A stretch of DNA of 63,371 bases, counting the filler, from Reclinomonas americana ATCC 50394 (Eukaryota): the NCBI GenBank assembly GCA_048213135.1. It is 5 parts of 5 records of this genome, joined end to end, with 100 filler letters (N's around TTAATTAATTAA, not from the genome) between each part and the next. Parts side by side here need not be neighbours in the genome. Positions count along the whole stretch, not along the records: positions 1 to 26,117 come from PS015411.1; 4 more parts are not named here. One strand, written 5' to 3'. A program made the translations under genes and the position numbers. The notes beneath the pieces were generated by a model that ran no database searches, had not been told where the DNA came from, and was given only the letters and a program-made list of their open reading frames with translations. Positions 7,564 to 11,973 of the stretch are shown here, piece after piece; position 1 is the stretch's first letter; every line of letters starts with the position of its first letter.

Positions 7564-10500
7564 ATGAGGTGTGTTTTGTTGATCTAGTCACCATTTAGTC
7601 GCACTCTCATTATGTGTTTCTGGTTGAACTGGCAGTCAACAACAGCGACAGAAAGCATGCACAATGGGGGCTACTGGCGATGTGAAGGCACTGCGCGAGC
7701 TGGTGGCGCGCGAGGGTGCACACACTCTGCTGAAGGGAGAGGAAATGAGCGACTATGGGAGCTCGGTGTTTTACTTTGCCGCTGCCAGAGACAATCTCTC
7801 TGTGTTGGAGTATTTGTGGGAGGAGAGTGGTGTGGGGCCACAACTCGCACAAACAGTCAATGACTATGGGTGGACTCCGCTGATGGGGGCTGCCGCCGGT
7901 GGGCAACTGCAAGTGGTGGAATGGTTGTTGGCCGATGAGCGACGATGTCCGCCGGAGATGGCGCGGGCGGTCACCAATGACCGTGATTCTCTCTATCCAC
8001 AGTCCACTGCACTGCATTTAGCTGCCAGAAATGGCCACGATGATGTTGTGCGACTCCTCGCCAATCGCTTTCCCGACCTCATTCCCGTGGTCAACAAGAC
8101 CGAGAAGACGGCGGCTCAGGTGGCACGCGACAAGAACAGGCAACATGTAGCCGAGTTGCTTGATCGCCTTGCTGCGCAGCCAGCACCACCATGCCAACAA
8201 CAACAACAGTCGCGATCTGCCCCGCCTTATCCACCACCTGCAGGTCTAGTTTTGACATCTTCTCTCTTGTTTGTCTAGCTGGCTCTCCCCTCTCAAGCTG
8301 CTTTGTATGTGTGCATATGTGCATATCTCCCTGCGCAACATGCAGAGCCGGCACTTCAGGTGAGAATGTTCATGCCTATCCATCGTCCTTCCATTTCGGC
8401 GTTGTTTTCTTCTCTTGGCACCAATCTCGTCTAATTCGTTGCAGTTTGTTGCTGACGAAGCTACGGCTCGTCAGATCGCTCAGCTCCAGCACGATCTCGC
8501 CGCAGCGCAACAAGAGCATGCTCGGCAGCGGGGAGAGTGGGATCGACAGCGATGTGAGCACGCTGATATCGTCGCCCGGCTGCAGCGTACTGTCATGGAG
8601 CTCGAGCAAAGGATAGAGGAAGAGAGACAACGTGTCTCTCGTGTTCAGAATGAGCTGGATTGTGCTGCAGATCAGCTTGCTCTAACCCTGTGCGCGAGAG
8701 ACTCCACGGCCGCCCAAATAAGTACCTTCCGACAACACGTGCAAGGGAGAGACGCCGTTCAAGGTTTGCGGTTTGTGTCTGGACTGTTCTCTCTCTCTCT
8801 CTCTCTCTCTCTCTGCCAAATTATTGTTTCAAAGTGAGTCGTTTTGCTCGCAGACGATGTCATGTGTAGATTTGTAATGTTATTGATTTCGCTCACTGCT
8901 CGCACCAACGCAGTCGACCTCGCCACTAGGCACGATAAGCCTGCCGTGGAACTCGCCACCGACACGGAAAATGTTGCGCACTTTGCTGATCCTCCGCAGC
9001 TCAGTGCCAGCTTACCTGCTGATCGGTGCAACACTGATGAGGATGCTTCGGAGCTCAATCAAGTCAGACGCAAGTTGGCAACAATCATCGCCGACCGCGA
9101 TGAACTAGAACAGCAGCTGGCTCAATCGCGGCATACCTCTGCCACAGTTGCTGCCGAATGCAGTGACTTGCGTGCAGAACTCGTCATGTCTACCGCTGTG
9201 CGCGACGATTTACAGCAAAGGGTCCGTGAGGTGGAAGGCCAGCTTCGCGCTCTGTTCCACATGGACTTTCTCAGGTCTCTCGTGCGCTGCTTTGCTGTTT
9301 TCTCCTAGCACTGTTCATGGTGTGCTCACTTATTGTTGACAACGTGTGTTCAGTGACCGTCGTCGGATTTTGATGCTGACAGAAGTTGTGCACGAAATAA
9401 TTCCGCTCGCTCTCGGCTCGCTGCTGCAACTGCTTGTCGCCAGTTTCTTTCCTGGCGAATTTCACATTGAGCAACTGTGCCTCCCCGCTCCACCGCCAAG
9501 GTGCGCGATTGCGCGCTGTCTTCACAATGTCAAAGCAGGTTCAATTGTTCATGTGATAATACGTTTTTGATGTGTAGATATTGTCGAATGTTGCTGGATA
9601 AGCGAGGAAACATTCGCATGCGGTCCGCGGAGCTGTATCCTTCCAACTATGAAGCAGTGTGCAAGTTCAAGCGGAGTGGAGAGACGACGAAGATGGATGT
9701 GTCGCTCCTCAGTACTCTACTGTTGCACACAAGCTTTGTTTCAGCCGCCGCCTGCCGTGATGCAGATCTTCTCGAGAGCCGCGTACGCCTCGATCCTGTC
9801 ACCCGCAGAGATCGAATGGCTGTGCCACTGCTCGCTGAACCGGCAAGGGTAAGCATCGTCGATGAGTATTCATGATCGTGCAAGGAACCCACTCGCTCTC
9901 GTCGATGCAGATTCGAGCCGTCGAAAACTTGCGAGATGTGCGCCATCGAGTGTCTCACTTGGCCCGACTTTCCGCACTTGAGGATGCAGAATATGTGAGT
10001 GTCATGCGACTGGTACGCGACTCGCTTCACGCTCTCTTCCCCGAAGGACATGAGAGTATCCAAATGTTGTTCCAAGCATACAAGAGTTACGAGACTTGTA
10101 CCGGAACCGCTTGCGTTTTCTCTCTTCACACTCACTCATCATTGATACAGACGTGAGCCACATCAATGCTACGGCCGAATTGGTCAAGGAAAGAGCTGGC
10201 AGATTTGTGATTCGCGCACCCGTTGTGCGGGTCTCTGATCTGTCGCCTACGAAGCGACTGACGATTGGTGTCTTGATCTCTACGTTGGTTCTTCGGATAT
10301 TCTCCACAGCTCGGTACTTATTGCTATCCCACAGGGCAAGTTGCTATCACAAAAGCTGTTCTCCGTCTCGGCGGTTTGACGCAGACTGTTGCGTACAAGC
10401 AATATCAACTGGCTCATCAGAAAGATTGTGATTTGCAATCGGCGGACTGGGAAATGGTACGCCAGAACTACGAAAGCGAACAATCTCTGCTGATGCAACT

Positions 10501-10875
10501 CGAGTTGCGTGCTGGTGGTGATTACTGCAGTTTAATGCTTACCTCCCTTGCTGATGCACTCGAACACAGTCATCCGAACATTGTGAAACTGATGGCAGTA
10601 TGCAGCGACGATCCGCGTGGTCTCGGTCTCGTTCTTGAATTTGTTGGTCCACAAGACGAAGATGGAGACTCAGTGACGCTTTGCGACTTGGTGAAGGACG
10701 ATCGCGTGACGTCTCAACACCTGCTCAGTCTTCTCGTGCAAGTGGCGTCGGCCGTGGTACACATGCACTCTAGGCGCGTGGTGCATCGAGACCTTAACCC
10801 CCGAAGTTTCGTTCTTCATTATGTCGTGGAGACCGGTGAAGACAAGTTGGCAGCACTTTAGTGCTGCGGTACATA

Positions 10876-10923
<48 letters not shown>

Positions 10924-11973
10924 CGTACGACTACGAGACGCGACGAGTACGTAACGTAACTTAACTTACCTTCGCGACGACGTACTTACTTACCACCGAC
11001 GACGGACGGAACGAACGTACGTNNNNNNNNNNNNNNNNNNNNNNNNNNNNNNNNNNNNNNNNNNNNNNNNNNNNNNNNNNNNNNNNNNNNNNNNNNNNNN
11101 NNNNNNNNNNNNNNNNNNNNNNNNNNNNNNNNNNNNNNNNNNNNNNNNNNNNNNNNNNNNNNNNNNNNNNNNNNNNNNNNNNNNNNNNNNNNNNNNNNNN
11201 NNNNNNNNNNNNNNNNNNNNNNNNNNNNNNNNNNNNNNNNNNNNNNNNNNNNNNNNNNNNNNNNNNNNNNNNNNNNNNNNNNNNNNNNNNNNNNNNNNNN
11301 NNNNNNNNNNNNNNNNNNNNNNNNNNNNAGAGAGAGAGAGAGGTCGAATCCAATGGCAGCGAGTGAACTTACAACTTTCCTGCAGGCATTCTCACCAGCG
11401 AGGACAATCGTGTAGCAAAGGTCTGCGGTTTTGGTGAAGCCAGAGTGCATGGCACTCTCGGCAGGATGCAGTCGAAGCATGGCACGGTGGCGTACGCTGC
11501 GCCGGAAGTCGTGCTGGATCAGGAGGTGCTGTGATAATTGTTCTTTAGTTGTGATCACAGAGTGGATTGGTTACAAAACACTCCCTTTGCCGTCCACAGT
11601 ATGATGAAAGGGCAGATGTGTACGGACTCGGTTCCCTGCTTTGGTTAATTGTCACTCGTCAGGAACCATTCAGCGGGGTTGCACTACTCGACATCCTGCA
11701 ACGCATGAGTGTCGGTGTGCTGCCTGGTAACCTTGACGATGAGGGTGTACGCGCAACCATTCCGGAGGATGTTCGCGGTTTGATTCGACAGTGCTGGGCT
11801 GCGTATGAGTGAACTGCTATGTGCGGGAGAGAGGATTGCTCACTGTGACTGTGATGCAGAGGCCACAAGCAACACGCGTCTCTGCATCGTATGTACACGA
11901 TGAACTGAGGCGCATGTGTGAGGCTCCATTAGCTGGATCTGGAGGGGCTGGATCCGCCGGACCTTGGATGTGA
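7564..11973 (+). CDS. Ankyrin / coiled-coil / HEPN (DZIP3/Swt1-like) / pseudokinase protein, paralog 3
   Basis: Frame-consistent exons 7564-7568, 7636-8243, 8346-8359, 8445-8763, 8914-9253, 9354-9500, 9578-9848, 9911-10097, 10151-10230, 10310-10503, 10570-10805, (N gap), 11386-11525, 11600-~11802, then ~11860-11973 (last junction ambiguous). HEPN-like MDVSLLSTLLLH ... AVENLRDVRHRVSH ... LEDAEY. Kinase fold VAYK, HPNIVKL, HRDLNPRSIL, KVCGFG, GTVAYAAPE, DVYGLG. Confidence 0.75.

Follow-up and report, generated by a model that had tools for sequence, protein, structure and literature searches.

Kinase-linked HEPN ribonucleases (RNases) act as dimers; in Ire1, an active kinase lies N-terminal to the KEN RNase domain and the sensor is lumenal. 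The closest described systems are taken here from parts of four published sources (PMC3710099, PMC8195603, PMC8260672 and PMC4718504). RNase L consists of ankyrin-repeat, pseudokinase and RNase domains, and its pseudokinase scaffolds homodimerisation and binds nucleotide canonically with two cations (as presented in the sections of PMC4718504 used here). KEN is itself classed as a HEPN domain, and Ire1 likewise has a kinase fold adjoining a HEPN-superfamily RNase whose activity is dimerisation-dependent (PMC3710099, in part). Beyond this pair, HEPN domains are described as swappable effectors in immune-type proteins that carry ankyrin, NACHT, Death and propeller modules (excerpts of PMC3710099 and PMC8260672), and in many cnidarians NACHT is paired most often with a DZIP3-like HEPN (PMC8260672, same excerpts). 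The fusions listed for the DZIP3/hRUL138 family in Table 1 of PMC3710099, the portion of that source that bears on this point, include ankyrin and NACHT and contain no protein kinase. Here, we describe a gene of the protist Reclinomonas americana ATCC 50394 (assembly GCA_048213135.1), located in a 63,371-nucleotide (nt) stretch of DNA (hereafter the window), in which ankyrin repeats, a long coiled coil, a HEPN-like helical domain and a degenerate kinase appear to be joined in a single polypeptide.

The reading that we favour, at roughly even odds (a probability of about 0.5), is that the locus is one gene encoding a cytosolic protein of 985 amino acids (aa) with the predicted order ankyrin repeats and first coiled coil, second coiled coil, HEPN-like domain and pseudokinase, which would have arisen by an effector swap and would act as a dimerisation-triggered RNase. 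If the HEPN call is right, the protein resembles RNase L in uniting N-terminal ankyrin repeats, a pseudokinase and a HEPN-superfamily Rx4H RNase in one chain. It differs from RNase L in its order (ankyrin, coiled coil, HEPN-like, kinase, as opposed to ankyrin, kinase, KEN), in possessing a 225-aa coiled coil and in lacking KEN, since no exon of the gene matches that Pfam family (Ribonuc_2-5A); no 2-5A system is implied. Whereas RNase L keeps two-cation nucleotide binding, the gene under study has lost both the DFG aspartate and the catalytic-loop asparagine. A preliminary description of this DNA had called the architecture RNase L-like in permuted order, and that label survives for the shared architecture and falls for the KEN domain and the two metal-binding residues. 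The analogy is accordingly one of architecture only: the gene falls outside the RNase L/Ire1 family, and its product may work alike. With Ire1 it would share a kinase-fold domain beside a HEPN-superfamily RNase (putative here), in reversed order and with a dead kinase; the kinase resembles a tyrosine kinase-like (TKL)/IRAK type rather than that of Ire1, a label taken from motif reading, and no signal peptide or membrane segment was noticed on inspection by eye, no predictor having been applied. The DZIP3/hRUL138 family offers a likeness of another sort, in that HEPN is there an exchangeable effector within multidomain proteins of lineage-specific expansions; the gene departs from it by carrying a protein kinase and by leaving the HEPN_DZIP3 profile (PF18738) unmatched on single exons. 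Literature searches, made mostly at the level of titles and abstracts, found no ankyrin-HEPN-kinase protein of this order, in keeping with the earlier suggestion that the arrangement had not been described.

The exon chain was rebuilt by script from the window and comprises 12 exons on the + strand that form a single open frame of 985 aa (Table 1). This frame holds over 2,958 coding bases, and the 11 introns are without exception of the GT-AG type; ten of them measure 53–150 nt, and the remaining one, of 550 nt, contains a run of N. The preliminary description had arrived at one open frame by splicing by hand, and the rebuilt chain bears this out, as it does the placement of three peptides (MDVSLLSTLLLH from 9693, R-H-R-V-S-H at 9941-9958, and LEDAEYVSVMRLVRDSLHAL next in the same exon). 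The span originally given, 7564..11973, is correct at its end and starts 100 nt upstream of the ATG at 7664. The proposed domain order likewise stands at the sequence level for the ankyrin repeats, the coiled coil, a helical domain with R-[H]-x3-H and a degenerate kinase, and the assignment of that helical domain to HEPN finds no Pfam match on single exons. Two splice choices deserve mention: an alternative donor at 11803 in exon 11 alters two residues and keeps the frame, and at exon 12 the acceptor ending in CAGAG alone yields a kinase-like frame.

The preliminary exon chain runs across the one assembly gap within the gene (7664-11022 is free of gaps), and the sequence supports this. The gap is crossed in phase (G/GC), and the Pkinase profile is unbroken, with the match on exon 9 ending, and that on exon 10 starting, at profile position 129. 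Because the kinase profile is continuous, the gap is placed inside an intron with no kinase segment missing, and the idea of a coding exon hidden among the N's is dropped on the same ground. Coding potential was assessed for 11 exons, the last being left out, by codon usage, with other genes of the window as the training set. The model frame outscores the other five frames in 9 of the 11 and the other two forward frames in 10, and the score is positive in every scored exon, reaching its highest value in exon 7 (0.354 bits per codon). Furthermore, G+C content is 0.43–0.52 in introns as against 0.51–0.64 in exons, and none of the eight antisense open reading frames (ORFs) beneath the gene carries a Pfam family. 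Neither exon 8 nor the ORF around it contains an in-frame ATG; the kinase therefore is not a separate gene starting there and must join the upstream exons. As read from genomic sequence, the chain is probably a real fusion gene.

A tblastn search of the 985-aa model against the window recovered three paralogs, designated A, B and D. In each of them a Q-rich coiled coil leads directly into the kinase, without a HEPN-like insert, and the kinase carries FEWPEIV.ATDSFSP..VGEGGQG (the GEGGQG being shown by A and B), HRDIKPAN in A and B or HRDIKPTN in D, and DFG. These kinases read as intact and IRAK/Pelle-like, the latter a label that comes from motif reading, Pfam naming Ank and Pkinase only. Similarity to the gene under study is uneven along its length. 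The ankyrin part is 48–72% identical to the paralogs, and the first coiled-coil exon shares 54–57% identity with B and D (aa ~189–261); the kinase, by comparison, reaches 25–31% (E 0.013–0.02), and aa ~262–805 have no match elsewhere in the window. On account of this pattern, the gene looks like a member of an ankyrin/coiled-coil/kinase family whose effector end has been exchanged. The preliminary description had envisaged an independently assembled protein; with the gene placed in a local family whose other members join ankyrin repeats and a coiled coil to an active kinase, assembly from scratch is set aside in favour of an effector swap within that family. In the paralogs, the shared ankyrin/coiled-coil module would drive an intact IRAK/Pelle-like kinase, and in the gene under study this effector would have been replaced by a cassette of second coiled coil, HEPN-like domain and pseudokinase.

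Two further observations concern the family as a whole. Three of the four genes have an out-of-frame ATG 7 nt before the start codon (+ strand, at 675 in A, 4103 in B and 7657 in the gene under study), paralog D reading CTTGG at that place; the overlapping ORF that it opens is 18 aa long in A and B and longer in the gene under study, and the ATG could reflect translational control or leaky scanning. In addition, an ORF just upstream of paralog D contains part of the final kinase exon of the paralogs (..VELVDGGAEWTPRIAEPMFELGMQCM..) and then continues in another frame, so that it looks like the decayed remnant of a further tandem copy.

At the N-terminus, exon 1 matches the ankyrin families of Pfam (Ank_2, 1.4e-18; Ank, 7.4e-16; Ank_4, 2e-13). 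The coiled coil that follows was located with a simple home-made heptad score, as distinct from a standard coiled-coil predictor, which gave 27 windows at or above 1.6 within aa 199–425 and none in the remaining protein; shuffles of the same segment gave a mean of 3.7 windows and a maximum of 44. Heptad-like windows within the second segment lie at aa ~345–415, and Pfam matches to coiled-coil families are weak only. The ankyrin repeats and the first coiled coil, common to the three paralogs, would most likely serve as a binding and oligomerising module.

At the C-terminus, exon 9 matches Pkinase (2.8e-10, 40.5 bits against a cut-off of 31.7; profile positions 55–129) and PK_Tyr_Ser-Thr (1.3e-9, 38.2 bits against a cut-off of 23.1), and the Pkinase match continues through exon 10 (5.2e-5, positions 129–171) and exon 11 (0.0054, positions 174–244). 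The kinase retains the VAIK lysine (as VAYK), HRD and APE. Its catalytic loop has become HRDLNPRS, with Lys replaced by Asn and Asn by Ser, GFG stands in place of DFG, and the glycine loop is degenerate (IGQVAITKA); both metal-binding residues (the aspartate of DFG and the asparagine of the catalytic loop) are missing, whereas the paralogs retain HRDIKPAN or HRDIKPTN together with DFG. From these replacements, the C-terminal kinase fold is a pseudokinase, predicted to be unable to phosphorylate, and its role would probably be that of a scaffold or regulatory partner. Thirty-six residues follow the kinase. Among 5.8 billion clustered proteins (longer proteins), no homologue of exon 9 was found at the thresholds used.

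Between coiled coil and kinase lies a domain of ~200 aa, which we take from its motifs to be all-helical and most likely a DZIP3/Swt1-like HEPN, a putative metal-independent endoribonuclease with an intact R-H-x3-H, which would be active only as two adjacent copies. Taken simply as a call of HEPN, we hold this assignment to be fairly probable. The features attributed to HEPN domains are an Rx4-6H motif whose R is followed by N, D or H, an acidic position within helix 2 and inserts that are frequent between helices 2 and 3, and HEPN RNases are described as metal-independent enzymes that use the R and H of the motif (PMC3710099, in the parts consulted for this comparison). In the gene under study, R575-H576-R-V-S-H580 agrees with this motif, a polar residue following the R; D514 in MDVSLLSTLLLH is a candidate for the conserved acidic residue, its helix placement and its nearness to the site being proposals; and ~40 residues between MDVSLL.. 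and the motif helix form a candidate insert. AlphaFold2 applied to exon 7 alone, a fragment out of its context, returned a predicted local distance difference test (pLDDT) score of 75.8 with helices at 2–19, 25–42 and 44–61; the motif, at 11–16, falls in the last third of the first helix, which is followed by a loop (20–24) and the other two helices. The six-frame translation of the window (126,738 aa) contains a single occurrence of R[NDH]x3H with a downstream h-x-[DE]-x-[DE]-[FYW], in this gene, and the pattern D-h-[ST]-h-L..30-80..R[NDH]x3H occurs only in this gene and in the N-terminus of a NACHT gene, although both composite patterns were devised after the gene had been seen and their significance is overstated. 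A protein-language-model Atlas queried with exon 7 placed a DUF4559 (PF15112) cluster third (0.87) and HEPN_DZIP3 clusters fourth and eleventh (0.85 and 0.76). The motifs of the domain (..LYP.., h-D-h-S-L-L..L-L, A-h-E-N-L-R-x-h-R-[NDH]-x3-H, L-x-D-x-E-[FY]) would find their closest counterpart in the consensus of the DZIP3/hRUL138 family.

The NACHT gene just mentioned is a single-exon ORF of 1426 aa in which NACHT (9.6e-9) is followed by a pentapeptide repeat and 13 WD40 repeats, a layout like the HEPN-NACHT-repeat arrangement of cnidarian NLR-like genes. Its N-terminal ~250 aa contain HEPN-like motifs (..LDTTALSSIML.. and ..VRNKLRH..), and a Pfam scan of them at E up to 10 returned HEPN_Swt1 alone (E 0.014; 16.1 bits, short of the 27.5 cut-off). 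This region can be aligned with the middle domain of the gene under study at LDTTALSSIML/MDVSLLSTLLL and EELHSVRNKLRH/ENLRDVRHRVSH, and the presence of such a gene in the same window fits the theme of HEPN as a swappable module. AlphaFold2 without an alignment gave an unusable model of the NACHT N-terminus (pLDDT 41), and no homologue of its region 1–250 was found at the thresholds of the clustered-protein search.

Several results weigh against the HEPN assignment and are gathered here. Exons 5, 6 and 7, scanned singly and hence as fragments, matched no Pfam family at E up to 10, HEPN included, so that neither HEPN_DZIP3 (PF18738) nor HEPN_Swt1 (PF18731) reached its gathering score on a single exon, and PADLOC and NCBIfam gave no HEPN match on the same three exons. 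No homologue of exon 6 was found at the thresholds used among 5.8 billion clustered proteins (longer proteins), and exon 7 had no match at E ≤ 0.001 among 1.84 billion representatives. PDB sequence searches with exons 6 and 7, the NACHT N-terminus and a three-row profile returned nothing below E 0.2 and no HEPN entry, and Foldseek with the exon 7 fragment returned no match at E ≤ 0.001 and generic helical matches alone, all at E > 3. In the Atlas, two unnamed viral clusters outrank the HEPN-related ones for exon 7 (0.91 and 0.90), four of the ten best family-bearing matches agree, the Atlas itself rates the family as probably wrong, and exon 6 gave no lead. The lone R[NDH]x3H motif is common enough to arise by accident, with 66 occurrences in the six-frame translation and ~0.1 expected by chance per 200 aa. 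Likeness to the NACHT N-terminus is weak, its score being reached by 9 of 1000 shuffles for a pair that had been chosen; the NACHT ORF lies outside the 12 best of the 649 window ORFs in an open search, and MAFFT with the whole NACHT N-terminus places exon 7 elsewhere. A complex prediction that treated exons 5, 6 and 7 as three separate chains scored 0.10 against a mark of 0.34 and counts neither way. Three other candidate matches were rejected: a HerA fragment on exon 5 (PADLOC/NCBIfam, E 0.015 and 0.13) was taken as chance, as were a metagenomic locus (L001, 39% over 57 residues), which lies in the wrong frame of a GC-rich bacterial gene, and a locus on a viral contig (L002), which is antisense to a 528-aa phage gene.

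These negative results bear most directly on a rather unlikely alternative that accepts the gene model and regards the middle domain as a lineage-specific helical linker or regulatory domain without nuclease activity, the whole being an ILK-like ankyrin-pseudokinase scaffold that modulates the active-kinase paralogs, possibly by pairing through the shared coiled coil. Such a protein would sit easily with a HEPN call that gained no profile, database or fold support in the exon searches and with the chance expectation for the lone motif; the shared ankyrin/coiled-coil part would permit mixed complexes with A, B and D, and the loss of both nucleotide- and metal-binding residues is what is seen in scaffold pseudokinases. 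A plain linker accounts less readily for the co-linear series of an acidic residue, a long insert, R-H-x3-H close to the end of a helix and a further helix, which fits the HEPN features given in the parts of PMC3710099 used here, for the confinement of the composite patterns in the window to this gene and the NACHT N-terminus, for Atlas leads to HEPN_DZIP3 and DUF4559, and for the strongest coding signal of the gene falling on exon 7. Should the domain not be HEPN, the gene would be an ordinary lineage-specific ankyrin-pseudokinase. The middle domain could also be a membrane-acting or cell-death bundle. MLKL consists of a four-helix bundle, a brace and a pseudokinase, and its order of helical domain then pseudokinase is matched here by a region that is predicted to be helical where tested (the exon 7 fragment); against this, exons 5–7 match no helical-bundle death domain of Pfam, and R-H-x3-H with its flanking motifs would be meaningless in that family, so that we consider the idea highly improbable.

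The remaining alternative, which we judge unlikely, questions the transcript itself and holds that the chain represents either two genes, one that encodes the ankyrin repeats and coiled coil and stops near 9308 and another that encodes the HEPN-like domain and kinase, or an unexpressed, decaying chimeric duplicate. The exon 4/5 junction is the only one able to part two genes, for exon 4 read without splicing reaches a stop at 9306-9308 and exon 5 offers an in-frame ATG near 9376; the split would, however, leave a spacing of 68 nt as compared with 424 and 530 nt between neighbouring genes. Decay could be argued from the degenerate kinase motifs and from the decayed kinase fragment near paralog D, which shows that decay occurs in this family. 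Both versions must contend with the intact coding bases, the canonical sites at all 11 introns and the positive coding scores in all scored exons, and we return to the single HEPN-like fusion gene as the preferred reading.

The window as a whole has the character of eukaryotic DNA, with G+C of about 40–60% in 2-kb bins and short GT-AG introns. It contains 28 runs of N, of 20–490 nt and often flanked by (GA)n or (GT)n, as in a draft scaffold, which calls for caution wherever a gene model spans a gap. The gene under study is followed immediately by long open frames with a high content of proline, serine and threonine (PPPPPPSPTPHTSPP..), which match no Pfam family and represent either a low-complexity protein or a non-coding repeat. 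These and the other features of the window are listed with the exon chain in Table 1.

Table 1 Exons of the gene under study, its paralogs and other features of the window
Feature	Position	Strand	Content
Exon 1	7664..8243	+	Start codon and 4-5 ankyrin repeats, aa 1-194
Exon 2	8346..8359	+	14-nt micro-exon; length and AG/GT boundaries identical in 4/4 paralogs
Exon 3	8445..8763	+	First coiled-coil segment, aa 199-305, homologous to the paralogs' coiled coil
Exon 4	8914..9274	+	Second coiled-coil segment, aa 305-425; paralogs without counterpart (tblastn, window)
Exon 5	9354..9500	+	Start of HEPN-like helical domain, aa 425-474; hydrophobic helix (proposed helix 1); in phase with exon 4
Exon 6	9578..9848	+	HEPN-like domain, aa 474-564: ..AELYPS.., MDVSLLSTLLLH from 9693 (proposed helix 2, D514), ~40-aa insert
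Exon 7	9911..10097	+	HEPN-like domain, aa 565-627: AVENLRDV-RHRVSH (9941-9958; R575, H576, H580), then LEDAEYVSVMRLVRDSLHAL
Exon 8	10151..10267	+	Linker and first kinase strand, aa 627-666
Exon 9	10335..10835	+	Kinase N-lobe to catalytic loop: IGQVAITKA, VAYK (K687), HPNIV, HRDLNPRS (aa 816-823)
Intron 9	10836..11385	+	GTGAAG..CAG boundaries; (GA)n repeats and assembly gap 11023-11328
Exon 10	11386..11525	+	GFG replacing DFG (aa 847-849), activation segment, APE
Exon 11	11600..11808	+	Kinase C-lobe, DVYGLGSLLW ... QCW
Exon 12	11862..11973	+	Kinase end (PQATRVSASYVHDELRRM..), tail, stop codon 11971-11973
Paralog A	682..3579	+	Ankyrin, coiled coil, kinase with HRDIKPAN and DFG; 48% identity to ankyrin exon (296 columns, into coiled coil)
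Paralog B	4110..7240	+	Architecture as paralog A; 68% identity to ankyrin exon
Paralog D	53240..56532	-	Architecture as paralog A, HRDIKPTN; 72% identity to ankyrin exon
Possible remnant of a tandem copy	~57085-57571	-	Piece of the paralogs' last kinase exon
NACHT-WD40 gene	38087-42364	-	Single-exon ORF
Pro/Ser/Thr-rich open frames	12138-13276	+
TEDC1-like ORF, weak	13463-14296	-	2.1e-4
Arginase-family gene	16704-19405	+	At least 2 exons, 1e-30 and 2.4e-17
Ion-channel pore domain	61741-62703	+	4.3e-8

If the preferred reading of a HEPN-pseudokinase fusion is right, a signal would reach the protein by way of its ankyrin/coiled-coil part, or by its association with the paralogs, and would bring two HEPN domains together; RNA cleavage would thereby be switched on, after the model of RNase L and Ire1. 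The preliminary description had likewise proposed an ankyrin sensor, gating by a ligand or by dimerisation and a role in defence, all of which are conjectural. A long coiled coil beside the HEPN-like domain, together with a kinase-fold scaffold, would be suited to control by oligomerisation. The front end held in common with three active-kinase paralogs suggests that all four receive the same upstream input and may form mixed complexes, in which case one input could have two outputs, phosphorylation or RNA cleavage. In its widest form, the proposal is that a unicellular or early-branching eukaryote possesses its own RNase L-like enzyme, made by recoupling, in one member, the sensing and oligomerising module of a tandem IRAK/Pelle-like kinase family to a DZIP3-type HEPN RNase and a pseudokinase, so that one receptor family feeds two signalling outputs; this we put forward tentatively, as a possibility that falls short of being probable.

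Were it true, the gene would be the first pairing of a DZIP3-like HEPN with a pseudokinase and, together with the NACHT-WD40 gene, would point to a HEPN-based innate immune repertoire outside animals. Provided that the HEPN RNase is active, it would also represent a second, independent union of a HEPN nuclease with ankyrin repeats and a pseudokinase, a combination so far known from the vertebrate interferon effector RNase L, and the coupling of a dimerising kinase fold to a HEPN nuclease would then appear as a recurrent way of keeping a dangerous RNase off. The paralogs supply a natural comparison, the same front end being joined in one case to a kinase and in the other to a putative RNase effector, and make effector swapping in an immune-like family testable.

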